Shown: positions 1,279 to 35,300, numbered from the stretch's first letter. The stretch is DNA of 64,000 bases from Candidatus Micrarchaeia archaeon (GCA_038870455.1 JAWCPB010000002.1:2247-66246), one strand, 5' to 3'. The notes: generated by a model not told the origin, from the letters alone. Numbers and translations: made by a program.

Positions 1279-2058
1279 GTGGTTGCGGACATCGCGCTTG
1301 TGCTGACCGGCCTCCTGGTCGGCTTCCTTGTGGGCCTGACGAGCATAGGCACGGGCCTCGTGGGCACACCCACCCTCATCCTGCTTGGCGTGCCGCCGGC
1401 CGCGGCCGTCTCGGCCGAAATCATCCAGGGGACCGTGATGAAGGCGGTTGCCGTGATAAAGCATTGGCGCAGGGGGCGCGTTTTTCATTCCCTCGCGCTC
1501 AAGATGGTCGCGCTCGGCATTCCGGGCGCTGCCGCAGGCTCTTGGCTCTCCTCGCGGCTTGACGCCGCTGCCCTGTCGCAGGCGGTCGCGCTCATTCTCA
1601 TCGGCGTGTCGCTTCTCGTTGTTCTTGAGGCGTGGGCGAGCCGCAGGCAGGGCCCCTGCCGTGAGACCTTCCGCCCTCTCCTGAAAAACCGCGCTCTCAA
1701 CGATGCGCTCCTAGTCCTGCTGGGTGGCTGCGTGGGCTTTCTCTCGGGCCTCACGAGCATCGGCTCGGGCACCTTCATCGTCCTCCTCTTCCTGCTCTTC
1801 CTCCGCATCCCCACAGGCTGCTCTGTCGGCACCGCGACTTCGGCCGGCCTCCTCATCCTTTCAGCCGCCGCACTGTCGCATGCCTCGCTTGGTTCTGTTG
1901 ACCTTTCGCTCACCGCAAAGCTTCTCGCCGGCTCGCTTCCGGGCGTGTGGCTGGGCACCCATCTGCTGTCAAGAGCCCCGGCCCACCACATCCGCATAGC
2001 GATTGCCGCGCTCACGCTCGCGGGCGGGCTGAGGATTTTGACGGGTGTGCACCTTTAA
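1279..2058 (+). CDS. TauE/SafE (DUF81) family sulfite/sulfonate exporter-type membrane protein
   Basis: 259 aa with a GTG start. Two halves of multi-TM repeats carry the family-typical GFLVGLTSIGTG and GFLSGLTSIGSG glycine motifs. Confidence 0.7.
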   Translation: MVADIALVLTGLLVGFLVGLTSIGTGLVGTPTLILLGVPPAAAVSAEIIQGTVMKAVAVIKHWRRGRVFHSLALKMVALGIPGAAAGSWLSSRLDAAALSQAVALILIGVSLLVVLEAWASRRQGPCRETFRPLLKNRALNDALLVLLGGCVGFLSGLTSIGSGTFIVLLFLLFLRIPTGCSVGTATSAGLLILSAAALSHASLGSVDLSLTAKLLAGSLPGVWLGTHLLSRAPAHHIRIAIAALTLAGGLRILTGVHL

Positions 2059-2092
2059 ATACCCGTGAGGGCATAACATTCCACTTATTCTG

Positions 2093-2962
2093 GTGGGAGC
2101 TTTGAAGCCCTACTATCTGGCAAAACCCCCGGAGACCCCCCTCGCCCAGAGGCGCGCGCGAATGCTCTCGAGGGAGGAAGGCGAGCGGATTCTGGCGATG
2201 TCCCCGCGGGCCATCTCCGAGCTCTTGCGCAAGCCCGCTCCAGAGTACATTGATGCGGCCGTGCTCAAGCCATCGCGCAAGGGAGTTCGGCTGCTCGGCG
2301 AGATGGCGAGAAGCGAGGCGGAGGCCAGAGAGTTCCTCACCGCGCTCAGGGACATCGCGCTCACGAGCGAGGAGTTCGACGGAGTGGCCAGAAAGGAGCT
2401 CGCCAAAACCGCAGTCTCGCAAAACGCTGACCCGGAAGCCGCCAAGGCGGCCTTCATCCTCGCCGAGAGGGCCGGCCTTGCGATCGGCGAGCGCATCCGG
2501 CGAATTATCGTCGGCAGGCTCATCCTCACAGCCCCCACCACCATTCTCTCCGCAGCGCTTTCTGTCTTGGCTTTCGGCACAGCAGCGCTCGCTCTCGTGT
2601 TTGGGCGCATTTCAGACCTCATCGTCGCTCCGATTGCTGGCTTTTCAGGCTGGATCGCTCTCAAAGCCGCGCGCGCGGCCGGAAGCCGCTTTGCCGACAG
2701 CATCCGTATGGCATTAACTTTGGGAAAAAGGCTCGCCGGCTATGCTGCGGAGCTCAGAGATGCCGAGATCGCCGAGGTGCTGGAAAGCTCGGCTTGGGAG
2801 CGAGCCTTGCGCGAGGGCGTTCCGGCTACCCCCGCAGAGCTCAAAAAAGTGCTAGGGGACACCGAGCCCAAGACAGGAACGAATGCGCCGGACGCGGCCA
2901 GCGCGTTGGAGCTCACCGAGGAGGACATCGGCCGAGTCCTTAACAGAAAAAAGCGCGACTGA
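2093..2962 (+). CDS. Hypothetical protein with central hydrophobic segments
   Basis: 289-aa ORF with cluster-like codon usage and no recognisable motif. TM-like stretch [28 protein letters not shown]. Confidence 0.4.
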   Translation: MGALKPYYLAKPPETPLAQRRARMLSREEGERILAMSPRAISELLRKPAPEYIDAAVLKPSRKGVRLLGEMARSEAEAREFLTALRDIALTSEEFDGVARKELAKTAVSQNADPEAAKAAFILAERAGLAIGERIRRIIVGRLILTAPTTILSAALSVLAFGTAALALVFGRISDLIVAPIAGFSGWIALKAARAAGSRFADSIRMALTLGKRLAGYAAELRDAEIAEVLESSAWERALREGVPATPAELKKVLGDTEPKTGTNAPDAASALELTEEDIGRVLNRKKRD

Positions 2963-2982
2963 AATCACCAATTATTCTTAGC

Positions 2983-3011
2983 GGAATAAATTATTCAACA
3001 ATTTATTTAAA
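2983..3011 (+). promoter_or_regulatory. GGAATA box (2983-2988) plus TATA-like tttatttaaa (3002-3011) upstream of the ThrC-like gene
   Basis: Same motif arrangement as at 1214, 6822 and 9488, about 35 bp upstream of the start at 3045. Confidence 0.45.
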
Positions 3012-3044
3012 CTCCGCCCGCCTAAAGCCTTCTCTCCTTCCGAG

Positions 3045-4301
3045 GTGTTTCTCATAGCCCGCTATAACCTCAAGTGCAGGGAGTGCGGAAAGGGGTATCC
3101 CGCGGCCGAGCGGACGGTTTGCGATGACTGCTTTGGCCCTGTCAAGGTGAATTTCGAGCTGGCCGAGGTGGGCAGGACCTTCACAAAGGAGAACATCGCC
3201 CGCCGCCCGCTCTCACTGTGGCGCTACTTCGAGCTGCTTCCTGTCGATGACAGGAGCCGCATCGTTGACCTTGGCGCTGGCTACACGCCGCTCATCCACG
3301 CGAAGAAGTTAGGGGATAAGCTTGGCCTCAGGAAGCTCTACATCAAGAACGACTCGGTGAACCCGACCTTTTCCTTCAAGGACAGGCCCGTGACGGTCGG
3401 CATCACCAAGGCCATTGAGTTCGGCAAGAAGGTCATCTCATGCGCCTCAACGGGAAACCTGGCGGCCGCCAGCGCGGCCCACGCCGCAAAAGCAGGCCTG
3501 CCGTGTTTTGTGTTCATCCCCGCCGACATCGAGCTCAACAAAATAGCCCAGATTTTCGCCTACGGCGCGCGCGTCATTGCAGTCAACGGCATCTACGATG
3601 TGGCGAACCGCCTCTCCAATGAGGCGGCTGACCGCTTCGGCTGGGCCGTGCTGAACGTGAACATCCGGCCTTATTACGCGGAGGGCGAGAAGACCATCGC
3701 GTTCGAAACGTGCGAGCAGCTGGGCTGGGAGCTGCCTGACGCAGTGGTAATCCCCATCGGCAGCGGCGGCCTGCTCTGCGAGGTGGAGAAGGCCTTCAGG
3801 GAGCTGCGGGAGCTGCGCCTTGTGGCGGACAAACCAGTTCGCTTCTACGGCGCGCAGGGCGAGGGCGCCGACGCAGTCATTCGGGCGGTCAAGAAGGGCG
3901 GGCCGGTCGTTCCCATCAAGAACCCCAGGACAATCGCAAAGAGCATAATGTTCGGCGCGCCCGGCGACGGCGAGCACGCGCTACGCATCATCAGGGAGAC
4001 GCGGGGAGGGGGCGAGAACCCGGATGACAAGGAGATTCTTGAGGGCATTCGCCTGCTCGCCCAGACCGAGGGCATTCTCACCGAGCCAGCGGGCGGCACA
4101 ACCATCGGCGCGCTGAAGAGGCTGGCCGAGGGAGGCGCGTTTGATGCGGGCGATGTCGTGGTCGCGTTCATCACGGGCAACGGCCTCAAGACGCAGGAGG
4201 CGATTCCGAAAGGAAAGGCATACAGGATCGAGCCGAGGATAGAAGAGGTCGAGAGGATACTGAGAAGGCTTGGGAGGGAGAGCCATGGCAAAGGGGATTA
4301 G
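3045..4301 (+). CDS. Threonine-synthase-like fold-type II PLP enzyme with N-terminal Cys4 zinc ribbon
   Basis: 418 aa. N-terminal CRECG...CDDCFG zinc ribbon. NPTFSFKDRPV PLP-lysine motif typical of ThrC. GSGG and GNL segments of the ThrC/CysK fold. Its 3' end overlaps the MoaD-like gene by 32 nt. Confidence 0.85.
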   Translation: MFLIARYNLKCRECGKGYPAAERTVCDDCFGPVKVNFELAEVGRTFTKENIARRPLSLWRYFELLPVDDRSRIVDLGAGYTPLIHAKKLGDKLGLRKLYIKNDSVNPTFSFKDRPVTVGITKAIEFGKKVISCASTGNLAAASAAHAAKAGLPCFVFIPADIELNKIAQIFAYGARVIAVNGIYDVANRLSNEAADRFGWAVLNVNIRPYYAEGEKTIAFETCEQLGWELPDAVVIPIGSGGLLCEVEKAFRELRELRLVADKPVRFYGAQGEGADAVIRAVKKGGPVVPIKNPRTIAKSIMFGAPGDGEHALRIIRETRGGGENPDDKEILEGIRLLAQTEGILTEPAGGTTIGALKRLAEGGAFDAGDVVVAFITGNGLKTQEAIPKGKAYRIEPRIEEVERILRRLGRESHGKGD

Positions 4302-4569
4302 GGTGAGATTCTCCAGCGCGCTCAAGCCGCAGACGGGCGAGGCCGAGACAACCCTGCCCAAGGCCGGCAGTGTCGGGGAGGTTCTCGCCCTGCTTGTCAA
4401 GAAGTACGGCGAGGGCTTCCAGAAGCGCGTTTTCGACGAAAGCGGGAGCGTGCGCAGGTTCATCAACATCTATGTCAACGGCGAAGACATCCGCTTCAAG
4501 AATGGTCTGGCCAGCAGGCTCAAGGCTGGCGACGAGGTGCTCATTCTCCCCGCAGTGAGCGGCGGGTGA
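4270..4569 (+). CDS. MoaD/ThiS-like ubiquitin-fold sulfur-carrier protein number 1 (C-terminal GG)
   Basis: 99 aa (about 94 from the second Met). Ends ...VLILPAVSGG followed by stop. The beta-grasp pattern (IRVRF..., FINIYVNGEDIRF) resembles MoaD/SAMP. Confidence 0.8.
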   Translation: MGGRAMAKGIRVRFSSALKPQTGEAETTLPKAGSVGEVLALLVKKYGEGFQKRVFDESGSVRRFINIYVNGEDIRFKNGLASRLKAGDEVLILPAVSGG

Positions 4570-4573
4570 GGTA

Positions 4574-5323
4574 TTGGAGCTAAGCGATTACGACCTCAAG
4601 AGGTACGACCGGCAGATGCGCATTCACGGCTGGGGTGAGGAGGGGCAGAAGAGAATAAAGGCCGCAAAGGTGGGCGTCATTGGCACGGGGGGGCTTGGCT
4701 CCCCCCTCACAACCTACCTCGCGGTGGCGGGCGTGGGCAAAATAATCGCGGCCGACCGCGATGTGGTTGAGCTGTCGAACCTGAACAGGCAGATACTACA
4801 CTGGGACAAGGACATCGGCAGGAAAAAGGCAGAGAGCGCTGCCGAAAAGCTCAAGCAGGTCAATCCCTCCATTGAGGTGGTCGTCGTCGGCGAGGATGTG
4901 ACCGCGGAGAACATCGATAGGATATTTGAGGGCGTCGATGTCGTTGTTGACGGGCTGGACAATTACCCAAGCCGTTTCGTGCTCAACGAGTTCGCCGTGC
5001 GCAAGCGCATTCCGTTCGTTCACGGCAGCGTGTGGGGCATGGAGGGACGCGTGACAACCGTGATCCCAGGCAAGTCGCCTTGCCTGCGGTGCATCGTGCC
5101 CGAGGCCCCGCCGCGCGAGGTTTTTCCAGTGCTCGGCACAATTCCGGCTCTCGTGGCTACCATTCAGGCTACAGAGGTGCTCAAGTGCATAACGAAAGTT
5201 GGCCTGCTACTGACGGGCAGGCTGCTCGTCTACAATGGCGAGCACATGACTTTCGACGAGATTCCCCTCGAGAGGGACCCGGATTGTCCGGTGTGCTCGG
5301 CCCTCTGGACGAGCGAGGGCTGA
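4574..5323 (+). CDS. E1-like ThiF/MoeB/HesA family adenylyltransferase number 1
   Basis: 249 aa. YDRQMRIHGWGEEGQKRIKAAKVGVIGTGGLGS nucleotide-binding start. CLRC...CPVC zinc motif. No rhodanese domain. TGA stop at 5321-5323 lies in the same frame as the downstream CysK. Confidence 0.85.
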   Translation: MELSDYDLKRYDRQMRIHGWGEEGQKRIKAAKVGVIGTGGLGSPLTTYLAVAGVGKIIAADRDVVELSNLNRQILHWDKDIGRKKAESAAEKLKQVNPSIEVVVVGEDVTAENIDRIFEGVDVVVDGLDNYPSRFVLNEFAVRKRIPFVHGSVWGMEGRVTTVIPGKSPCLRCIVPEAPPREVFPVLGTIPALVATIQATEVLKCITKVGLLLTGRLLVYNGEHMTFDEIPLERDPDCPVCSALWTSEG

Positions 5324-6262
5324 GGTGGTTCCACGGCAAGATACGAGAGCGTCCTTGAGGCGATTGGCGGCACGCCGCTCATTCGCCTCAACAGGATAAC
5401 CAAGGGCCTGAAGCCTGTCATCTATGGCAAGCTCGAAGCCCGTAATCCAGCCTACTCAGTCAAGGACCGCATCGCGCTCGCCATGATCGAGGCAGCCGAG
5501 AGGCAGGGCGTGCTCAAACGCGGCTCAATCATCGTTGAGCCCACGAGTGGCAACACGGGCATCGGCCTCGCCATGGTGTGCGCGGTCAAGGGCTATCGCC
5601 TAAAGCTCACCATGCCCGAGAGCATGAGCCTGGAAAGGCGTGCCCTGTTGCGCGCTTTCGGCGCCGAGCTCATCCTCACCCCTGCCAGCGAAGGCATGCG
5701 CGGCGCTGTGGCGGCTGCAGAGGAGCTTGCCAGACAAGACAGGCACGTGTTCATCCCGCAGCAGTTCAAGAACAAGGCCAACGTGGAGATCCACAGGAAG
5801 ACAACCGCAGAAGAGATATGGCGGGATACAGAAGGGAAAATCACTCACTTTGTGGCCGGCGTGGGCACGGGCGGCACCATCACCGGGGTCGGGCAGGTGC
5901 TGAAGAAACGAAAGCCTTCAGTGAAAATCTATGCTGTCGAGCCTGCAGCTTCGCCCGTGCTGTCAGGCGGCAAGCCGGGTCCTCATAAGATTCAGGGCAT
6001 CGGCGCCGGCTTTGTGCCGGACATTCTCGACAGGAGCATCACCGACAGGATCATCCAGGTCTCGAACGAGGACGCGTTCGCCACAGCAAGGAGGCTCATC
6101 AGGGAAGAGGGCCTCCTTGTAGGAATCTCGGCTGGCGCGAACACCTGGGCAGCCCTCCAGGCCGCGGTGGAGGCGGACAAGGGCGACGTTATCGTCGTAG
6201 TGCTGCCCGATACGGGCGAGAGGTATATAAGCACAGACCTCTTTGCCGAATACAGGGAATGA
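5324..6262 (+). CDS. cysK: Cysteine synthase (O-acetylserine sulfhydrylase, CysK type) number 1; start unresolved
   Basis: Near-colinear with E. coli CysK from [19 protein letters not shown] through [11 protein letters not shown] (PLP lysine), [10 protein letters not shown] and [10 protein letters not shown]. The first in-frame ATG (5483) would delete the catalytic lysine. No ATG/GTG/TTG lies between the upstream in-frame TGA (5321) and the conserved N-terminus. Confidence 0.8.
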
Positions 6263-6263
6263 C

Positions 6264-6809
6264 ATGGCGTTGGATTTCCTGAAAACGCTTCTCGAGGACT
6301 TCACCACCCCATTCAAGAGAGACCCAGCAGCCACCAATATCCTAGAAGTGGTTTTCCTCTACCCCGGCGTGCATGCGATCCTGCTCCACCGCATCGCCCA
6401 CAGGCTGTGGCTATGGCGCATACCATTCATCCCGCGCGCGCTCAGCCACCTCAACCGGTTTCTCACAGGCATCGAGATTCACCCCGGCGCGACCATAGGC
6501 AGGCGTTTTTTTATTGACCACGGTGCGGGCGTGGTCATAGGCGAGACGGCCGAAATAGGCGACGACTGCACCCTTTATCAGGGTGTGACGCTCGGCGGCA
6601 CGGGCCTGCAGAGGGGCAAGCGCCATCCAACAGTCGAAAAGGAGTGTGTCATAGGCGCCGGCGCCATTCTGCTGGGGCCCATCCGCATAGGTCATCACAG
6701 TCGCATTGGCGCGGGCAGCGTGGTCAACAAGTCCTTCCCGCCCTATTCAACAGTCGTTGGTGTGCCGGGACGTGCGGTGACCAAGAGCACCTTCATCTAC
6801 CAGATATAG
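6264..6809 (+). CDS. cysE: Serine O-acetyltransferase (short form)
   Basis: Left-handed beta-helix hexapeptide repeats ([41 protein letters not shown]...RHP) like CysE. ATG at 6264 sits 1 nt after the cysK stop. An alternative ATG lies at 6243. Confidence 0.8.
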
Positions 6810-6821
6810 CCAATTCTGATT

Positions 6822-6854
6822 GGAATAGTTTAGTCAAAAATTTATTTAAATAAG
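6822..6854 (+). promoter_or_regulatory. GGAATAG box (6822-6828) plus TATA-like tttatttaaataag (6841-6854) upstream of the ATP-grasp gene
   Basis: AT-rich island in the 64-bp cysE/ATP-grasp gap. A CCAAT..ATTGG inverted repeat lies immediately upstream. Confidence 0.45.
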
Positions 6855-6873
6855 AATACAAGAAATACTGGGC

Positions 6874-8097
6874 ATGGCTGTTGGCATACTCCACGCGCAG
6901 GGACTCCTTGAGTTTGATGATCCCGCAAACGTCATATCCGGCCGAGCCGACAGGTCCGGAGTAATCCTCGCGGGGTTGGAGGCCAAACTGCGTGCTAAAG
7001 GTGTGGAAGTTATCCGCATTTCCAGTGAGAGCCTGAAAGGCGAATTCACCTCACCCCCGAACCTCTCCGTGCTCTACGTATTCCCGCTGTGCGCCAAGTA
7101 TTTTGAAGACCTGCCCAAAAAAGTTCGGACGAAGCTTGAGGAATGGGATGAGCGGGGCCTGCTCTTCAACCCGCTCGGAGCGCTTATCGCCCAAACAGAC
7201 AAGCGCGCCACGACCGAGGCATTCAAAAAGCACGGGGTTGCCATTCCGGAGACGCTCATCTCGTCAAACAGCAACGAGCTGGCTGCGTTCGTGAAAAATC
7301 ACCGCGTAGCAATCCTCAAGCCCACACACGGTGCTGGCGGCGGCAACATCCTCTTCCTGGTCTGGAAGGACGGGACGGTGTACGCCCGCGTGCCGCAGGA
7401 TGGCCGCATCGTCGAGCTGCCGTGTGAGTTCAAGCACTACACCACTCGCCATTCAAGACTTTACTCCGCGCACACCCACGATGGGCGTGTGCACATCCAT
7501 GGCGAGGTTGTTGTGCAGGAGGTCATCCAGCCGGAAGGGCGCTGGAACGAGAGCGTGCTCAAGGTGTATGTCGTGGATGGCAGGGCCGCTTTCGGGGTGG
7601 AACTCACGCGCAGCGCGAGCACCCCGGAAGAATCCATAATCACGTATGCGAACGCGGAACACAGGCTGGTGGATGTCAAATCGATCCCAAAAGAGGCCGT
7701 GGAGCTGGCCGTCAAGGCCGCCGCTGCGCTGGGCCTGCGCGCCTGCCTCGTTGATCTGATTAAAAAGAATGGGGGCTGGGTGGCGCTCGAGACCAACGGA
7801 GACAACATCTACACCATCCACGATAGGGGGTACCGTTTTGCGCAGGGTTTCAAACCAGAGTTTGATTTTGATGAGCATCTGGCCTCTGCGTTGGCCGCCC
7901 GCGACACTCTTTCGGACCGCAAGCGCGCTCCGGACAACCGCAGGGACAAGCACGTCTGCGCTCCTCTTCCCGTCAGCCCGGATCCGTTCGCGCGCGCCAA
8001 GGGCGTGACCCTCCCGCGCCCAGGCCAGGCAGGAGAGGGCCGGCAGCCTCTCTCGCTCGCCCAGGCTGGAAAGCCTAATAAAATCACGGTGAAATAA
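6874..8097 (+). CDS. ATP-grasp family ligase (RimK/GshB-like fold) with low-complexity C-terminal tail
   Basis: 407 aa. VAILKPTHGAGGGNILFLV glycine-rich ATP-binding loop. Overall N-domain, central-domain and C-domain layout of ATP-grasp enzymes. Pro/Arg-rich tail of about 80 aa. Confidence 0.6.
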   Translation: MAVGILHAQGLLEFDDPANVISGRADRSGVILAGLEAKLRAKGVEVIRISSESLKGEFTSPPNLSVLYVFPLCAKYFEDLPKKVRTKLEEWDERGLLFNPLGALIAQTDKRATTEAFKKHGVAIPETLISSNSNELAAFVKNHRVAILKPTHGAGGGNILFLVWKDGTVYARVPQDGRIVELPCEFKHYTTRHSRLYSAHTHDGRVHIHGEVVVQEVIQPEGRWNESVLKVYVVDGRAAFGVELTRSASTPEESIITYANAEHRLVDVKSIPKEAVELAVKAAAALGLRACLVDLIKKNGGWVALETNGDNIYTIHDRGYRFAQGFKPEFDFDEHLASALAARDTLSDRKRAPDNRRDKHVCAPLPVSPDPFARAKGVTLPRPGQAGEGRQPLSLAQAGKPNKITVK

Positions 8098-8105
8098 GCG
8101 GTTGT

Positions 8106-9011
8106 ATGGCAGGAAAAAAAAGGCCGGGAATCCTCTCCGCGATTGGAAACACGCCGCTGGTTGAGCTCGTCAAACTCAATCCCTCGCGCCCGCGCGTGCG
8201 CATCCTCCTCAAGCTCGAGGGCCACAACCCCACGGGAAGCCTCAAGGATCGCATAGCCCTCTACATGATTGAGAAGGCGGAGGAAAGGGGCGAGCTGACA
8301 AAGGGGAAAACTGTTCTAGAGGCCACGAGTGGCAACACGGGCATCGGCCTCGCCATGGTGTGCGCCGCCAAGGGCTATCCCTTCGTGGCGTGCATGAGCG
8401 AGAGGGAGAGCGCGGAGAGGAGGAAGATAATGAAGGCTTTCGGCGCAGAGATCATCCTCACGCCCGCAGAGCAGGGAACAGACGGAGCGATAAGGAGGGC
8501 GGACGAGCTGGCCGCCGCCCACCCGGAAAAATACTTCGTGCCGCGCCAGCACAGCAATCCGGACAACGCGCTCGCGCACTATGAGACGACGGGCCCAGAA
8601 ATCTGGGCACAGGCGAAGGGGGATGTCGATGTCTTCATCGCGGGCATCGGCACAACGGGCACGCTCATGGGTGTCGGCAGGTTCCTCAAGGAAAAGAACC
8701 CGCACGTGAAAGTCATCGGCGTGGAGCCGGCAGAGAAGCACAGGCTGTACGGCCTGCGCAACCTCACCGCCGCCATGGTGCCGCCCATCTTCAACCCCTC
8801 CCTGCTTGATGACAAGGTGCGCGTGGCCGATGAGCACGCCTACAGACTGACGAGAGAGCTCGCGCGCGCCGAAGGCGTATTCGCCGGAATCAGCACGGGC
8901 GCGGTCGTGTGGGCCGCCCTGGAGGCCGCGAAGTCGCTCGGCAGGGGCACGATAGTCGCGCTCTCGCCCGACAGGGGCGACAAGTACCTGAGCATCCCGG
9001 ATTTATTCTGA
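8106..9011 (+). CDS. cysK: Cysteine synthase (CysK/CysM type) number 2
   Basis: 301 aa. IGNTPLVEL...NPTGSLKDRIA (PLP lysine), [20 protein letters not shown]. Own ATG 8 nt after the ATP-grasp stop. Confidence 0.85.
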   Translation: MAGKKRPGILSAIGNTPLVELVKLNPSRPRVRILLKLEGHNPTGSLKDRIALYMIEKAEERGELTKGKTVLEATSGNTGIGLAMVCAAKGYPFVACMSERESAERRKIMKAFGAEIILTPAEQGTDGAIRRADELAAAHPEKYFVPRQHSNPDNALAHYETTGPEIWAQAKGDVDVFIAGIGTTGTLMGVGRFLKEKNPHVKVIGVEPAEKHRLYGLRNLTAAMVPPIFNPSLLDDKVRVADEHAYRLTRELARAEGVFAGISTGAVVWAALEAAKSLGRGTIVALSPDRGDKYLSIPDLF

Positions 9012-9039
9012 AACTATTCTTTTTTGAAATCCCTCTCGG

Positions 9040-9477
9040 GTGATGGCATTCGGCGCACGAAACAATCTTGTTGGGCCTGTGGGCGGAGCATTCTACGGGC
9101 CTGGAGGGAATCCGCACTGCCGCCCGCGCAACTGGTTTGGACTGGGCGACGGAGCCAAGCGCAGGCTTTCCAGCTGCGTGGGGCGCGTTGGAGAAAACGG
9201 CTTCTGTCTGAGGGCTACTGAGGTGTTTCGCGATGCCGCATTATCCGAGAGGGAGGAGATTTTGCACGGCGCGCTCGAGGCGCTCAGGAGGGAAAAGGAG
9301 GAAAACGGGCGTGTTCCCAGGGAGCTCTTGAAAAAAATCGTCAGGCTCATCGAAATAGACGCCTGGGCCGCGCGCCGCGTGCTGCAGGACTTCATCGGCG
9401 CGCTGAGGGCCGAGCGCAGCGAGGCCCTACCGCTCTTTGTCAAGCTCAAGGACTACTCAAACGCGAAGGCAACGTGA
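9040..9477 (+). CDS. Hypothetical protein (C-terminal half helical); start uncertain
   Basis: 145-aa ORF in the operon gap between cysK number 2 and MoaD number 2. No motif recognised. No JAMM signature. Confidence 0.3.
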   Translation: MMAFGARNNLVGPVGGAFYGPGGNPHCRPRNWFGLGDGAKRRLSSCVGRVGENGFCLRATEVFRDAALSEREEILHGALEALRREKEENGRVPRELLKKIVRLIEIDAWAARRVLQDFIGALRAERSEALPLFVKLKDYSNAKAT

Positions 9478-9487
9478 TATTCTTTTC

Positions 9488-9517
9488 GGAATAAAACTTA
9501 TAGGAAATTATTTATAT
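9488..9517 (+). promoter_or_regulatory. GGAATA box (9488-9493, in tttcggaataaaa) plus TATA-like attatttatat (9507-9517) upstream of MoaD number 2
   Basis: Same tttcggaata sequence as at 1211-1219. Lies in the AT-rich island 9478-9520. Confidence 0.45.
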
Positions 9518-9549
9518 GCGCACGACGGAATATCCTCGGGTGGTTTCCT

Positions 9550-9825
9550 TTGGTGAAGATAAGGTTCTCTTCAGCGATCGCCGCTGCGGTGAGGGGCGAG
9601 GCGGAGGCCACGCTGGACTTCGAGGGGGACGTCGCGGCGCTGCTCGCGCTTCTCTCCCAGAAGTACGGCGAGGGCTTTCAGAAGCGCATTCTCTCGGGCG
9701 GAAGGATAAACGGCTTCGTCAGCGTGTATCTCAACGGCGAGGACATCCGCTTTCTCAAGGACGTTCAGACCCGGGTGCGGAACGGCGACACGATATACAT
9801 CACTCCGGCCGTGTCGGGGGGCTGA
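9550..9825 (+). CDS. MoaD/ThiS-like sulfur-carrier protein number 2 (C-terminal GG)
   Basis: 91 aa with a TTG/GTG start. Ends ...IYITPAVSGG plus TGA. Paralogous to carrier number 1 (shared YGEGFQKR, NGEDIRF). Confidence 0.8.
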   Translation: MVKIRFSSAIAAAVRGEAEATLDFEGDVAALLALLSQKYGEGFQKRILSGGRINGFVSVYLNGEDIRFLKDVQTRVRNGDTIYITPAVSGG

Positions 9826-9830
9826 GCCCC

Positions 9831-10625
9831 GTGCCGCTGAGCCTGACCGAGCTCAAGCGCTACTCGCGCCAGCTCATCCTGCCGAACTTCGGCGCGAGAG
9901 AGCAGCGGAGGCTGAAGAACGCGAGGGTGGTCGTCACGGGAGCCGGCGGCATCGGCTGTCCCGTGCTGCTCAACCTCGCCGCCAGCGGCGTGGGAAGCAT
10001 AACAATCATAGACAGCGACAGCATTGACCTCACGAACTTGAACAGGCAGTTCCTCTTCACGCCAGCGGATGTGGGAAGGCCAAAGGCGGTGGTGGCCGCA
10101 GAGCGCATCCGCGCGTTCAATCCGGACATCGAGGTCAGGCCCGTTGTGAAGGTCATCGACTACTCCAACGCGTTCGACCTCCTCAAGGGCTTTGACGCAA
10201 TCATCGACGGCACGGACAACTTCGCCGCGCGCTATGCGATAAACGACGCCGCCGTGCTCAACAGGACCCCGCTGTTTCACGCCGCCGTTCTGCAGTACGA
10301 GGGACGCGTCTTCACCGTCATTCCCGGAAAGAGCGCCTGCCTGCGCTGCGCCTTCCCGGTCATCCCGCCAAAGGGAAGCATCCCCACCTGCAGGGAGGCG
10401 GGAGTTCTCGGAAGCGTCATAAGCGTGCTGGCAGGCATCCAGGCCACTGAGGCGATCAAGCACCTGGCCGGCCAGGGCGCGCGCCTGACCGACAGGATGC
10501 TGGTTTTCGACGGCAGGACCATGTCTTTCGACGAATTCCGCTTCAGGAGGAGGAGGGAGTGCAGCGCGTGCGGCCAAAAGGGCTTCACTTCCTCGCCGGT
10601 GTATCAAGAGGTTTGTGACATATGA
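9831..10625 (+). CDS. E1-like ThiF/MoeB adenylyltransferase number 2
   Basis: GTG at 9831, 5 nt after the MoaD number 2 stop. LKRYSRQLIL...ARVVVTGAGGIGC. CLRC...CSAC zinc motif. The ORF-track 5' extension (9516) is probably spurious. Confidence 0.8.
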   Translation: MPLSLTELKRYSRQLILPNFGAREQRRLKNARVVVTGAGGIGCPVLLNLAASGVGSITIIDSDSIDLTNLNRQFLFTPADVGRPKAVVAAERIRAFNPDIEVRPVVKVIDYSNAFDLLKGFDAIIDGTDNFAARYAINDAAVLNRTPLFHAAVLQYEGRVFTVIPGKSACLRCAFPVIPPKGSIPTCREAGVLGSVISVLAGIQATEAIKHLAGQGARLTDRMLVFDGRTMSFDEFRFRRRRECSACGQKGFTSSPVYQEVCDI

Positions 10626-10861
10626 AACAGATCCACGAGCTTGACCTGAGGGGCGAGAGGTGCCCTGACACCTTCACCTACACGAAGATTCGGGCGGAGG
10701 AGCTGCGGGAAGAGGGCAGGGCCGGCGACATCCTCAAGGTGATTGTCGACAACGAGCTCAGCGCCAGGGACGTTCCGGCGAGCATGCAGCTCGAGGGGCA
10801 CAGGGTGATAGAGGTCAGGAAGGCGAACGGGCTGTGGGAGCTTTTTTTCGAGATTAAATAG
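10622..10861 (+). CDS. TusA-like sulfurtransferase (CPxx motif)
   Basis: 79 aa. LDLRGERCPDTFTYTKIRAEEL matches the TusA/SirA LDxxGxxCP...K pattern. ATGA overlap with the E1 number 2 stop. Confidence 0.65.
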   Translation: MKQIHELDLRGERCPDTFTYTKIRAEELREEGRAGDILKVIVDNELSARDVPASMQLEGHRVIEVRKANGLWELFFEIK

Positions 10862-11911
10862 GTGGTTGAAATCAGGGAATGGGATGATGCTCTTGGCCTG
10901 ACCCCGCGGCTTGACTGCGGCCTGTGCGGGCTGGACTGCGGCGCGCTGGCCCGCAGGGCGCTCGCAGGAGCGAGCGAGTTCTCGGAGTGCATTCCCGCCA
11001 GGCAGAGCCCGCAGGCCGCGCCCGCGTTCGCAGAGCTGAGGCGAAAGCACTCGCCCTCGCGCCTGCCGGAGCCGAGGAAGGACGTGCTTGTCGTGCGCCC
11101 ATGCATCGATGTCGCGAACAGGGTGAGCGGCGAGGCGAACATCCGCCACTGGTCGCCATCCCCCTACCCGCCCTTTGACTCGGTGTATCTGGAGCATGCG
11201 TTGCGCACCAGCGGAGCCTTTGGCAACGTCAAGTACTCGCCCTCGCTTGGCATCGCAAACCTTCTGCTCAGCGAAGGGAGAGGAGTTGTCTTCTCCCGCT
11301 CCGGAAAAGCCATCGCGCGCGCCGCTTTCGACCTCAATGACTTGGAGAAAACATTCTCACTCGTTTCCCTGGTCTCCTGGCCCGCCGCGGTCTGCGGCGA
11401 ATGCGGTTCTCTCGCAATCGACTGCGCCATAGGCGCGTGCAACGCCTGCGGCGCCTGCCACGCCTCGCGCGTTCCCCCCTCCACAAACCTGCAGTCATCT
11501 GTACCGAGCCGCCGCGCCACCCCAGCCGTTTCCCTCCTCTCGCCCGCGGCGAATCACGCGATTGAAGGGATCGGAGCAGAGCCTGCACTCGAGAGTGCCG
11601 AGAAAAGAGCGTTCGCGCTGCTGCTCGAGGGCGATGCCGGCGCGCTGTTCCTCCTTGGGCTCGCCAAGCAGCTTCGCTTTCTCGCAGACGGGCTGGCCAG
11701 GGCAGGAGGGGGCCGGCAGCTGAAGAAAATCGCCAGGGAGGCCTGGGAGGCTCTCGAGACGGGGGATAAGAAAAAGGCGGAGCACGCTGCCGGAGATGCC
11801 GCGCGGGCTTTAGCCGAGCTCAAGCGCGGCTTTTCAGAAGGCGGGCAGGTTTGGGCCGCCAAGGCCGCAGGGGCATCGCTTAAAATAGCACGCGCTGCAA
11901 CAAAGCTCTGA
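10862..11911 (+). CDS. Cys-rich protein with two putative Fe-S-cluster (PF04060-like) domains
   Basis: 349 aa with a GTG start directly after the TusA stop. LDCGLCGLDCGALARRALAG and CGECGSLAIDCAIGACNACGAC resemble the CxxCGxxxCxxxA Fe-S domain of corrinoid/Fe-S proteins. The rest is uncharacterised. Confidence 0.5.
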   Translation: MVEIREWDDALGLTPRLDCGLCGLDCGALARRALAGASEFSECIPARQSPQAAPAFAELRRKHSPSRLPEPRKDVLVVRPCIDVANRVSGEANIRHWSPSPYPPFDSVYLEHALRTSGAFGNVKYSPSLGIANLLLSEGRGVVFSRSGKAIARAAFDLNDLEKTFSLVSLVSWPAAVCGECGSLAIDCAIGACNACGACHASRVPPSTNLQSSVPSRRATPAVSLLSPAANHAIEGIGAEPALESAEKRAFALLLEGDAGALFLLGLAKQLRFLADGLARAGGGRQLKKIAREAWEALETGDKKKAEHAAGDAARALAELKRGFSEGGQVWAAKAAGASLKIARAATKL

Positions 11912-11920
11912 GGTGCGCGA

Positions 11921-13396
11921 ATGGCGCTGCGCGTGCACAACACCCTATCCAAGAGGCTCGAGGAATTTGTTCCGGGCGAGCCGGGCTTGGTGCGCATGTA
12001 CGTGTGCGGCCTGACCCCATACGACAGATTCCACCTCGGCCACGCGCGTACTTACGTTGCCTTTGACATCATAAGGCGGTACCTCGAGTTCGTCGGCTAT
12101 CGCGTGCTGCACGTTCAAAACATCACTGACGTGGATGACAAGATACTCAACCGTGCAAGGGAGCGCAGCGAGGAGCCTCTGGCGATGGCGGAGCACTTCA
12201 GCAAGCTCGCCATGCAGGAGTCCGACCTCCTCGGCATACGGAGGGCGCACCACTATCCCAAGGTCAGCGAGCACATTCCAGAAATAATCTCCCTCGTCGA
12301 ACGCATTGCCAGCAAGGGCTTTGCCTACGAGACAGAGGACGGCGTGTATTTCGACGTCGAAAAATTCCCTGGCTATGGCAAGCTCAGCGGGCAAAAGCTT
12401 GATGAGATAAAAGCTGGCGCGCGCATCGCCGTGGATGAGAGGAAGAGGCACCCGGCTGACTTCGCGCTTTGGAAGAAGTGGAAGCCCGGCGAGGCGCTCG
12501 CCTGGGACTCGCCCTGGGGGCGGGGCAGGCCGGGCTGGCACATCGAATGCTCCGCCATGAGCGCGAAGTACCTCGGCCAGTCGTTCGACATCCACGGCGG
12601 GGGCAGCGACCTCATCTTTCCCCATCACGAGAACGAAATCGCCCAGAGCGAGGCGGCGAGCGGAAAACAGTTTGCGCGCTACTGGCTTCACACAGGCTGG
12701 CTGACCGTGAAGAAGCAGAAGATGGCAAAGTCGCTCAAGAACTTCATCACGGTGGAGGGGGCGCTGGCCAAGTGGGAGCCCGAGGTGCTGCGGCTGTTTT
12801 TCGCCTCCACACACTACCGCTCCCCGCTCGACTTCAACGAGGGCTCGCTTGAGGCCGCGCGCGCGGGCTTGGCCACGCTGCGCAGCGCGCTGTACAACGC
12901 CGCAGAGGCAAGGCCCTCGAGGGGCCGCCCGGCAAAGTGGCTCGAGGAGGCTGTTGCCAAGCACAGGGAGGCCTTTCTGGCGGCCATGGACAACGACTTC
13001 GACACCAGCACCGCGCTCGCCCACCTGTTCGAGATCGCCAAGCACATAAACACGTACATCAACGAGGGGAAAATCGACAGCCACGTGCTCGAGCACGCGG
13101 TCGCCGAGTACAAGAGCCTCGCGGGCATACTCGGCCTGCTCGAGAGCCTTCCCAGGAAAATAGCGAGTGAAGAGGATACCGCCCGGCTCAGGGTGCTTGC
13201 GGCCTCGCTGGGCGTGGACAGTGAAAAAGCAGAGCGCCTCGGCTTCACCGAGCTCATGTCGCTCGTGATCGCCGAGAGGGAGAAGGCGAGGAAGGCAAAG
13301 GACTTCGCGAGGGGCGACGAGATCAGAAAGGCGCTGCGCGGCCTCGGCATAGCCATCGAGGACACTCCAAGGGGAACGGTCTGGCGGTTTGCATGA
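11921..13396 (+). CDS. cysS: Cysteinyl-tRNA synthetase
   Basis: 491 aa. HLGHARTY (HIGH), KMAKSLKN (KMSKS), class I fold and C-terminal anticodon-binding helices. Confidence 0.9.
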   Translation: MALRVHNTLSKRLEEFVPGEPGLVRMYVCGLTPYDRFHLGHARTYVAFDIIRRYLEFVGYRVLHVQNITDVDDKILNRARERSEEPLAMAEHFSKLAMQESDLLGIRRAHHYPKVSEHIPEIISLVERIASKGFAYETEDGVYFDVEKFPGYGKLSGQKLDEIKAGARIAVDERKRHPADFALWKKWKPGEALAWDSPWGRGRPGWHIECSAMSAKYLGQSFDIHGGGSDLIFPHHENEIAQSEAASGKQFARYWLHTGWLTVKKQKMAKSLKNFITVEGALAKWEPEVLRLFFASTHYRSPLDFNEGSLEAARAGLATLRSALYNAAEARPSRGRPAKWLEEAVAKHREAFLAAMDNDFDTSTALAHLFEIAKHINTYINEGKIDSHVLEHAVAEYKSLAGILGLLESLPRKIASEEDTARLRVLAASLGVDSEKAERLGFTELMSLVIAEREKARKAKDFARGDEIRKALRGLGIAIEDTPRGTVWRFA

Positions 13397-31436: not shown

Positions 31437-32218
31437 GCCCCCTTCAGTTTTCTGACGAGCGCGGAGACCTCCCTCAGCCATTTTTTTTCAGTTCTCTCCG
31501 CGAGCGCGAGCTGGATGAAGGCGCTTCCAACGACAGCGCCGTCCGCACCGGCTTTCCTCAGCGCTTCGATGTGCTGTCGCCGGCTTATGCCGAAGCCCAC
31601 GCACAGGGGAACGCTCGGCGCGGCGGCCTTGGCGCGCTCGACGGCTTCCACGGTGATGCGCTTCAGGCTGCTCCTGGCTCCCGTCACGCCATAGTGCGCC
31701 ATGAGGTACAGGAAGCCGGTCGTGTGCCCGGCAATTTCCTTAATCCTCTCGCTGGGCGTGTTGGGCGCGATGATGAAACACGTCTTCACCCCTTTTTTTG
31801 CGCACGCGCGCTCTAAAGGCCCGCTCTCGTCTATGGGCAGGTCTGCGACCAACAGCGCCTCAGCGCCCGTCTCACTGGCTTTTGCCGCGAACTCCTCGAG
31901 CCCCATCTTGTAAATCAGGTTGTAGTATGTGAGCACTAAGCTCGGCGCCTTAATCCGCATTTCCTTCATCGCCCGCAGGCAGGCTCCAGGATTCGCTCCT
32001 TTGGACAACGCGGCCTGCCCGGCGGCTTGAATGGTGGGCCCGTCGGCGATTGGGTCTGTGAAGGGAATGCCGAACTCGATGATGTCCGCGCCCGCTCTCT
32101 CGAGCGCGGCGATGGCTCTCTTGCTGGCAGGCATGGATGGAAATCCGACCGGCCAGTACGCCACGAGCGCGATGTCGCCCTTCGCCCTTGCTCTCGCGAA
32201 CGCCTCTTCCAGGCTCAT
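31433..32218 (-). CDS. trpA: Tryptophan synthase alpha subunit
   Basis: [28 protein letters not shown]...[21 protein letters not shown]...CVGFGIS. ATG at 32218 overlaps the trpB stop (ATGA). Confidence 0.85.
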
Positions 32219-33408
32219 CGCCTCACCAGTCTCTGCATGGCTATGCCCATGTCCTTGTCCCCCCGTCCGCTCAGGCACACGGCAACGATGCCGTCCCTGG
32301 GCATGCCGCGCGCGATGCGGACAGCGTGGGCGAGCGCGTGCGCGCTCTCAAGCGCCGGGATGATGCCCTCCGTTTCTGAGAGCAGGGCGAACGCGGCAAG
32401 CGCCTGCTTGTCAGTGACCGCCACATAGCTCGCCCTGCGGCTTTCGCGGAGCAGGGCGTGCTCGGGCCCCACGCCAGGATAATCCAGTCCCGCGCTGACG
32501 CTGTGCGTGTCGAGAATAAGCCCCCACTTGTCCTGCAGCACGTAGCTGAGCGCGCCGTGCAGCACTCCCTCGCGCCCTGCGCACAGGCTCGCGGCGTGCC
32601 GGCCGCTCGCCAGCCCCTCGCCACCCGCCTCCACGCCGTGCAGCGCCACGCTGCCGTCTTCGATGAATGGATGAAAGAATCCAGCGGCGTTGCTGCCTCC
32701 TCCCACGCACGCCACGAGCGCGTCAGGCAGCCTTCCCTCCGCCTCGAGAATCTGCTCGCGCGCCTCCCTGCCTATGACGCTCTGGAAGTCCCGCACGATT
32801 CTCGGATAAGGATGCGGCCCCACCACCGAGCCGAGCAGGTAGTGCGTGTTGCCGATGTTTGTTATCCAGTCCCTGATGGCCTCGTTTATGGCATCCTTGA
32901 GCGTGCGTGCCCCGCTGCCAACGGGCCTCACGGTGGCTCCGAGCAGCTTCATCCTGAACACGTTCAGCTCCTGCCTCTTGACATCCACCTCGCCCATGTA
33001 AACGACGCACCGCAGGCCCAGCATGGCGGCCGCCGCGGCGGTGGCCACGCCATGCTGTCCGGCGCCCGTCTCGGCTATGACGCGCTGCTTGCCCATGTAC
33101 TTGGCCAGCAGCGCCTGGCCTATGCAGTTGTTGGCTTTGTGCGCGCCCAGATGGCACAGGTCCTCCCTCTTCAAGTAGATGCGCGCCCCGCCGACCTTTT
33201 TGGTGAGGTTGGCGGCGTAATAGAGGGGCGTGGGCCTGCCCACCCACTCCCTGAGCGCTGCCTTGAGCGTCCTCTGCTGCGTTTCATCGCGCATGAACTT
33301 TGCATACGCTGTCTCAAGCTCCCTGAGCGCTGGAATGAGCACTTCCGGAACGAATTTTCCTCCGTATTTGCCAAATCTTCCCCTGTCGTCAGGCCAGTCG
33401 TACGCCAT
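32215..33408 (-). CDS. trpB: Tryptophan synthase beta subunit
   Basis: [13 protein letters not shown]..., HLGAHKANN (PLP lysine), GSGSNAAG-like loops. ATG at 33408. The ORF-track N-extension is unlikely. Confidence 0.9.
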
Positions 33409-33413
33409 CCAAA

Positions 33414-33707
33414 TCACAGCCGATACACTTGAACGTGCGGCACTCCTTGAATCAGCACAACATCGCTTTTTTTCGCGAGCCCGCTTTCTATAACGAGCGC
33501 GACCGACTTTTTCCCAACTGCATTCACGCTCGATGCCCTGCCGAGCTCTGCGCGCGCGGCCTTCTCCTCCCCTCTCTTCCCGTAGAAGCCCGCGAACTTC
33601 TTGAGGTCGAGCACCCTCCCCCCTTCCCTGAAAACCATTCCAACAACCTCGTCGTCGCACAGCGCGAGGATGCGCGCTCCTCCCTTTGAATGAACGCGGA
33701 AGAGCAT
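33414..33707 (-). CDS. DUF424-family archaeal small protein
   Basis: 97 aa. [25 protein letters not shown]...[15 protein letters not shown] is typical of DUF424. Confidence 0.55.
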
Positions 33708-33731
33708 GGGAGGAATTGGCTGGGAGGATGT

Positions 33732-35300
33732 TTAAGCTTTTCGCGCCGGCGCGGTCGCGGCCCTGGCATCTGTGCTCAGGGCGAACACGGCCGCGCTCGA
33801 GAAGAGCCAGCCGTACCAGAAAAGCCAGAACCCACCTATCAGGTCAAGCCTGATGAACGAGATGGCCGCGAATAGCAGCAGCACGCCGGACAGCGCGCTC
33901 TCCCACTTTGTCTTCGCCACCGCGTCCGCCCAGCTCATGCTGTGCGCCGCCTGCCTCGTCATGACGAACCGCGTGGGCAGGCCGAGCAGCGCGACCGCGA
34001 TGGCCCTCGCCCTCGTCAGCGCCACTGCGAAGTTTATGAACATCACCATGAGCCCGAGGCGGTAGCTTCCGAAGTAGAGCTTGGCGCCAGCGACCACCAT
34101 GGCTATGATGGCCACCATGTAGGTGAGCGCGATGAAGTGCGCGAACTCAGGGATGAGCGCGAAGGAAAAGAATATCGTCGTGCTGAGGTTGAGCACCACG
34201 AAGGCGAGCGTCAGCAGCGCGTAGAATATGAAGAGGTAGGAGAGGTAGGCGAAGGAAAAGACCTGCGAGGCGTAGTGCAGCTGCTTGGCCAGCGGAATGC
34301 GTGCGATGTTTTTGAGGTAAGTCCATACCAGCCAGGTGTTGCCTATCGTGTACCTCCACTGCTGCGCCAGGAAGGTGGCGAAGCTCTCGATGGGCTCGCC
34401 GAGCGCGTACGCGCGCGGGTTGAATGCCCCTCCCATGCCCCGCAGGTCGGCCAGGAAGGAGAAGGCCGTGTCCTCAGTTGGCGAGGCCGGGAACCCGCCT
34501 ATCTTCTCCACCGCGCTCTTCCTTATGACGCCCGCGCTTCCGCAGAACATCCCGCTGCGATCGGCGCCCCTCACGGGCTGGACGAAATTATAGAAAAAGC
34601 TGTAGTAGGCGTTCACCGTGTTGGCAAACAGCGAGCCCGGCGCGTACTCCTTCCTCGTCTGCACGCTGGCGAGAGACGGGTCTGCCAGCAGGAAGCCGAT
34701 GTTCTCCTTGAGGAAGGCCGGGTTGACCAGCACGTCATCAGCATCGAAAAGCGCGATGAACTCTTCCTTTATGCTCGGAAGGAGTTTGTTGAGCGCGTAG
34801 CTCTTGAGCTTCACGGGATTGTGGATGAATGCATAGCGGATGCCGTGCCTGCGGCAGAAGCCCGCCAGCGCCGTGTCCGGCCTGTCCGAGTTGTCTATGA
34901 CATAATACGCAAGTTTTTCCCTCGGCCAATCCACCGCGAGCAGCGAGCGCAGCGTCTTCTCAACAGTTTCTAACTTCTCGTTTCTCGCCGGAACGACGAC
35001 CGCCACGCGCGGCAGCGAGCGAACGGGCGGGATTCTGACGCGCGCGGCCGAAAAAGAGGCGAGGTAATAATAGCAGCCGGCTATGTTGAACAGCGCATTG
35101 ACGGCAAGCAGCAGCACAAACACGCCGCCGAGCACCTTCTCGGCAGGCGAGCCCAGCACGAACAGCACGAGGTAGCACCCATAGCCCACCCCAACTAGTG
35201 AGATGGCCGTTATCAGGGAAGTGAGTGCATACCTTTTCCAAGCCGGGGTCTCCATGCCGGTTTTTTGGCAGGCTAATTTTATAAAGAGCCCCCTCAGCAC
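33732..35300 (-). CDS. Membrane-bound family-2 glycosyltransferase (cellulose-synthase-like/processive GT2)
   Basis: 522 aa. [31 protein letters not shown] and FDADD GT-A motifs, flanked by multiple TM helices. Confidence 0.75.

Follow-up and report, generated by a model that had tools for sequence, protein, structure and literature searches.

Within the window (the whole 64-kb stretch of DNA that was analyzed), an operon that runs from about 1279 to 13396 on the plus strand contains a gene for an E1-like adenylyltransferase and, directly behind it, the cysteine synthase gene cysK1. The operon genes were identified by Pfam and NCBIfam (Table 1), and their order is conserved gene for gene in a contig of a Micrarchaeia MAG (L002, JAWAFC010000013). 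The operon holds two genes for ThiS/SAMP-like carriers, each with an E1 gene behind it, genes for two CysK/M enzymes, and a gene for a 349-aa protein without a family match. As a whole, the operon suggests a cysteine or thiol metabolism that is tied to protein thiocarboxylate. By its sequence the host appears to be a Micrarchaeota-like (DPANN) archaeon, and since DPANN lineages are usually described as biosynthetically poor, a thiocarboxylate-linked operon is unexpected here. In Mycobacterium tuberculosis, CysO, MoeZ and CysM constitute a protein-thiocarboxylate pathway of cysteine biosynthesis. The archaeal operon resembles this system in that genes for a ThiS-like carrier, an E1 adenylyltransferase and a CysK/M-type sulfhydrylase lie side by side. 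It differs in that the sulfhydrylase is CysK-type and accompanied by CysE, that E1 and CysK are unfused, and that thiocarboxylate use is putative. No JAMM protease was seen adjoining the CysK-type enzyme.

Table 1. Features of the operon and of the E1-cysK1 junction, with the corresponding junctions of orthologous loci
Feature	Position	Strand	Basis or sequence
TauE-like exporter		+	
Hypothetical gene		+	
ThrC-like PLP enzyme	3045..4301	+	
ThiS/SAMP1-like carrier	to 4569	+	
E1-like adenylyltransferase (ThiF/MoeB/UbaA-like), TTG start, TGA stop 5321-5323	4574..5323	+	Pfam ThiF 2e-75
Shine-Dalgarno-like GAGGTGG overlapping the E1 stop	5322..5328	+	direct reading
ACG at the orthologous cysK1 start-codon position	5333..5335	+	DNA alignments, ORF length
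cysK1 CDS (cysteine synthase A), read from ACG: 309 codons + TGA 6260-6262	5333..6262	+	TIGR01139, Pfam PALP 6e-78
Predicted stable RNA hairpin in cysK1 codons 7-22	5351..5397	+	predicted fold of 58-nt stretch 5345-5402
PLP-binding lysine codon AAG (K44 of SVKDR)	5462..5464	+	direct reading
First canonical in-frame ATG (internal Met51, not start)	5483..5485	+	orthologues hold the same internal Met (AMIEAAE)
cysE (serine O-acetyltransferase), ATG 1 nt past the cysK1 stop (TGAcATG)	6264..6809	+	TIGR01172, 234 bits, cut-off 211
ATP-grasp		+	
CysK/M	8106..9011	+	
Hypothetical gene		+	
Second ThiS	to 9825	+	
Second E1, GTG start	9831..10625	+	
TusA		+	
Hypothetical gene		+	
CysS		+	
Junction, window			GGC TGA GGTGgttcc ACG GCA AGA TAC
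Junction, L002			GAG TGA tagc ATG CCG AGA TAC
Junction, L004			GGA TGA a ATG GCG AGA TAC
Junction, L003			GAGGTGgtttta GTG GCC AGA TAT
Junction, L005			TGA gttt TTG GCG AGA TAC

The E1 protein matches the MoeB/UbaA-like models of NCBIfam below their equivalog cut-offs, and is 90% identical to its L002 orthologue, with the same end point past the CPVC motif. CysK1 scores 457 bits against the TIGR01139 cysK model (cut-off 351) and is a cysteine synthase A by score, lysine and full length. Among the best 120 matches, its closest homologues are from a 'Candidatus Micrarchaeia archaeon' MAG (90% identity) and from Candidatus Gugararchaeum (71%). The cysK-cysE pair is kept in the orthologous loci L001/L002, L003, L004 and L095. 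CysK1 resembles the cysteine synthase A members of such pairs in its PLP lysine, TSGNTG and GTGGT motifs, 309-aa length and adjoining cysE, whereas its start position reads ACG instead of ATG, GTG or TTG. All 309 codons are free of internal stops and frameshifts, and the catalytic motifs are retained. The comparison of cysK1 with L002 gave a dN of 0.065 and a dS of 0.78 (dN/dS 0.083), and the dN/dS values of its neighbours are 0.076 (E1), 0.10 (CysE) and 0.070 (second E1). These rates indicate purifying selection on cysK1 during practically the whole of its divergence from L002, so the ACG would be either recent or tolerated.

Several other ORFs in the window deserve mention. A 369-aa 'ThiS-ThiF fusion' ORF (9516-10625, plus strand) is a listing artefact, as the second ThiS gene (9550/9553-9825, with a GG-TGA end) lies in another frame; the second E1 gene starts at GTG 9831, as it does in L002. 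A 145-aa hypothetical ORF (9040-9477, plus strand) is conserved in L002 and, unlike its neighbours, shows a dN/dS of 0.71 at a low dS (0.14); this could reflect a non-coding or regulatory region or a different constraint. Finally, a PALP-family enzyme is encoded elsewhere, at 32215-33843 on the minus strand (542-codon ORF, domain at residues 203-525), which brings the window to at least four PLP beta-family enzymes.

The E1-cysK1 junction and the start position

The junction reads AGC GAG GGC TGA GGT GGT TCC ACG GCA AGA TAC GAG AGC GTC CTT GAG GCG ATT GGC on the plus strand. A preliminary description of this DNA had reported that the E1 ORF, from TTG 4574 to its TGA, and the CysK frame share one phase, and the translation of the junction agrees with this. 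It was also right that cysK1 lacks a canonical start codon, as no ATG, GTG or TTG follows the TGA in this frame until ATG 5483, that a start at 5483 would cost the PLP lysine, which is encoded upstream of it, and that a GTG (5325-5327) is present in another frame. The conserved CysK N-terminus had been placed five codons after the TGA; in fact, the Y of YESVLE is the seventh codon (G G S T A R Y).

Two ORFs are expected to be in phase by chance in one case out of three, and a run of 53 codons without a start codon is not rare taken alone. Among the high-GC3 ORFs of at least 150 codons in the window, cysK1 is the only one with coding-like GC3 (0.72) in its start-free leader and the only one with a conserved domain that starts before the first canonical start codon. 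Thus, it is homology, and not the phase or the start-free stretch alone, that makes the case of cysK1 special. The other candidates with a Pfam match have a canonical start well ahead of their domain, and no second non-canonical start was found; the 64-kb window shows no sign of a generally relaxed start-codon choice in this genome.

Alignment of the orthologous loci places the ACG at 5333-5335 in a column that is occupied by ATG in L001/L002 and L004, GTG in L003 and TTG in L005. The four closest CysK orthologues (75-90% identity) have N-termini of the form M/V/L-[A/P]-R-Y with the start codons ATG, ATG, GTG and TTG, the N-terminus of the TTG-start orthologue being LARYGSVLETIGCTPL. The three closest orthologues (P0001-P0003) are 309 aa long, and the reading from ACG to the stop at 6260-6262 also gives 309 codons. 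In a degenerate metagenome scan, ATG was found directly before RY in eight of nine more distant CysK genes with the [R/S]-Y motif, while the ninth (L094) has no canonical start directly before RY. ACG occupies the start position in none of the four close orthologues and none of the nine more distant genes; because the relatives lack it there, the comparison gives no support to the idea that ACG would have been kept by selection. This codon is one transition away from ATG.

A search with the junction pattern, with N at the variable base, found no match in the genome or metagenome contig collections, and exact-protein look-ups with the 259-aa truncated CysK, CysK2 and CysS returned no match, so that no second assembly of this genome was found for comparison. 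Among the matches listed, the CysK loci of genome contigs are distant bacterial and archaeal ones (~55-68% identity), and their junctions are uninformative.

We consider a start site at 5333, with neither a fusion nor a frameshift, highly probable. The gene itself is very probably a normal cysteine synthase A gene that is translated separately from E1, with a start codon, 5333-5335, that reads ACG. The anomaly is a one-base change of the start codon, and it is by chance that the length of the spacer puts cysK1 in phase with E1.

The preliminary description had considered an E1-CysK fusion, which could arise by read-through of the TGA, selenocysteine insertion or TGA reassignment. The two ORFs are indeed in phase, and only three codons separate the TGA from the start position, but such a fusion is extremely improbable given the orthologous loci. 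In L002, the spacer is 4 nt, cysK is in a different frame, and an in-frame TAG comes directly after the E1 TGA; in L004, a 1-nt spacer leaves E1 and cysK in different frames. L003 and the Gugararchaeum locus L095 carry cysK-cysE without an upstream E1. A fused 562-aa query retrieved only proteins of 309-347 aa among its best 120 hits, with coverage of at most 56% and no two-domain homologue. Moreover, TGA is the commonest stop in the window (32 of 74 high-GC3 long ORFs), and in both ThiS-like genes it directly follows the codons of the C-terminal GG. The diglycine of ThiS-like carriers must be a free C-terminus, and TGA is therefore a true stop here. For SECIS and tRNA-Sec, Rfam (gathering threshold) gave no match and ARAGORN no tRNA within the 64-kb window, in agreement with the earlier remark that no SECIS-like structure was obvious. 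With out-of-frame orthologous junctions, no fused homologue and a TGA that is a true stop, the proposal of a fusion by read-through or recoding does not hold.

It is very improbable that a one-base indel, either an error or a programmed frameshift, joins GTG 5325 to the CysK frame, or that translation initiates at the in-frame ATT 5363. The GTG does exist, and translation table 11 admits ATT as a rare start in bacteria. However, cysK1 aligns with its orthologues without gaps from the start codon on, over exactly 309 codons, the GTG falls inside the SD-like GAGGTGG, and a slippery heptamer of the X XXY YYZ type is absent from 5325-5345. The sequencing or assembly frameshift that had been suggested near 5325-5350 can thus be dismissed, as there is no indel relative to the orthologues and its GTG belongs to the SD. 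The in-frame ATT that had been named as a rare start also exists, but at 5363-5365 and not at 5360. Its use would drop 10 residues found in all relatives, its sole SD-like motif, GAGG, is just 2 nt upstream, and the codon is paired in the 5' arm of the -28.8 kcal/mol stem described below. A rare start was therefore the right category, whereas ATT as the specific candidate fails against the orthologues, and the ACG at 5333-5335 had been overlooked.

Shine-Dalgarno context and a predicted hairpin

The GAGGTGG motif that overlaps the E1 stop is located about 4-5 nt upstream of the ACG (5 nt from the GGTG core), and the ACG is 9 nt past the stop. The site thus has SD complementarity at the 4-9 nt expected of an SD-led coupled start, beside an upstream stop, but not the canonical codon. 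The TGAGGTG string occurs 22 times in the window. At three real junctions on the plus strand (5321, 11909 and 17263), its TGA is the stop of an ORF of 200 codons or more, and in all three a long ORF follows after N5: from ATG 11921 (cysS, 491 codons), from ATG 17275 (206 codons) and, at cysK1, from ACG (309 codons). A fourth TGAGGTG at an ORF end, 40885 on the minus strand, belongs to an ORF that looks like a shadow of a plus-strand gene. By itself, GAGGTG says little about where genes start (78 occurrences, mostly in-frame Glu-Val codons), and only the stop-overlapping TGAGGTG-N5 form is informative.

The L003 cysK gene is preceded by GAGGTGGTTTTA-GTG. An archaeal SD of the GGAGGUGAU type has been documented (PMC6237735), and GAGGTGG matches that type. 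The SD before cysK1 is stronger than the one in L002 and is not decayed. A stem was predicted at 5296-5324 on the plus strand, in which CUCGGCCCUC pairs with GAGGGCUGAG, and it spans the E1 stop and the first SD bases. This predicted stem would help to couple cysK1 to the translation of E1, and L002 shows no obvious equivalent. Termination-reinitiation coupling, variably aided by SD, was demonstrated in the archaeon Haloferax (Huber et al. 2019, PMC6728339). The cysK1 junction is similar to SD-assisted coupling of this kind (PMC6728339) in that the upstream stop overlaps a strong SD with the restart codon 9 nt downstream, and in that TGAGGTG-N5-ATG occurs twice more in the window; it is different in that the restart codon is non-canonical and the coupling is putative.

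Downstream of the ACG, a stable RNA hairpin is predicted (-28.8 kcal/mol, z = -4.7, none of 200 shuffles as stable). Equally stable folds are found in 0.9% of all 58-nt windows and in 0.17% of the GC-matched ones. Counted from the A of ACG, pairing starts at +19, which leaves 15 nt between the codon and the stem; a small subunit with its centre on the ACG would end just short of the stem. The corresponding stretch of the four orthologues, all with canonical starts, has predicted energies of -10.5 to -14.9 kcal/mol (z from -0.75 to +0.98), and L003 encodes an identical peptide over the hairpin region, yet without a stable fold. No covariation was found for the hairpin, with 68.4% of cells paired versus 67.7% in shuffles. 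As a post hoc prediction from a single sequence, the hairpin is a lead that can be tested, but no evidence of a function. The background scan found another unusually stable 58-nt fold at 4363-4420 on the plus strand (-33.6 kcal/mol), inside the first ThiS-like gene.

To our knowledge, nothing comparable to structure-assisted non-AUG initiation has been shown in archaea. Eukaryotic hairpins located 14 nt, or about +20 to +26, downstream promote non-AUG starts including ACG (PMC11165317). The cysK1 start is reminiscent of this START or Kozak-type hairpin initiation (PMC11165317) in that ACG is one base from AUG and the stem at +19 is within the reported range. The data of that study (PMC11165317) concern scanning eukaryotic 43S complexes, whereas the archaeal hairpin occurs in one sequence, lacks covariation and is absent from the orthologues. 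It is quite improbable that the ACG is real and works as a start in this particular way, with the SD holding the small subunit from behind, the hairpin at +19 blocking it ahead and the P site thereby fixed on the ACG, where the initiator tRNA could then start.

What the ACG codon may mean

If the base is real, ribosomes that end E1 translation at the UGA, or an SD-held 30S subunit, would initiate at the near-cognate ACG, and the initiator Met-tRNA on this codon would yield the full-length 309-aa CysK1. Initiation at ACG is probably far less efficient than at AUG, a deficit for which the strong SD and the tight coupling with the end of E1 translation might make up in part, perhaps together with the hairpin past the leading edge of the ribosome. 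In E. coli, ACG initiates with an N-terminal Met at roughly 0.1-1% of the AUG level (bioRxiv 10.1101/063800), and reviews give only AUG, GUG and UUG as archaeal start codons (PMC7531240). Since ACG is outside the recognised prokaryotic start codons, expression from it could be negligible. Given that the base is real, we put the chance that ACG drives useful expression at about even.

The change could also be an artefact of the assembly. In this case 5333-5335 would truly or mostly read ATG, and the C at 5334 would come from a wrong base call or from a minor population allele that became fixed in the MAG consensus. The source looks like an uncultivated Micrarchaeota-like MAG, all four close relatives have a canonical start at this codon, the window is free of other odd starts, and a single T-to-C change would explain everything. 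On the other hand, substitution errors are rare in an assembled consensus and the locus is otherwise undamaged, with no indels and the low dN/dS given above, so that we hold an artefact to be possible but somewhat unlikely. We consider it unlikely that the mutation is real and has turned cysK1 into a very recent start-loss pseudogene, with the paralogue at 8106-9011 carrying cysteine synthesis. This second CysK/M-type enzyme is encoded 1.8 kb downstream in the same operon, and the loss of CysK1 could therefore be tolerable; the E. coli level of ACG initiation, no more than about 1% of AUG (bioRxiv 10.1101/063800), also fits with silencing. However, the 309 codons are intact, all catalytic motifs are there, and dN/dS is low, so any inactivation would be very recent, and the SD, stronger than that of L002, shows no decay. 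Neither a broken frame nor relaxed selection, by which a pseudogene is recognised, was found; the start codon alone is affected.

The main value of these results is corrective: the locus involves neither a frameshift nor recoding, and E1 is not fused to the sulfhydrylase. Automatic gene prediction would shorten cysK1 to 259 aa, without the catalytic lysine, and the annotation should run from 5333. If the hairpin-assisted mechanism were true, archaea would have their own version of the structure-assisted non-AUG initiation of eukaryotes, and the amount of CysK1 would be set at a low and constant proportion of E1 translation. Should the C at 5334 be genuine and CysK1 indeed be produced, the gene would be a natural example of archaeal initiation at ACG, a codon that is not part of the start set accepted for prokaryotes.
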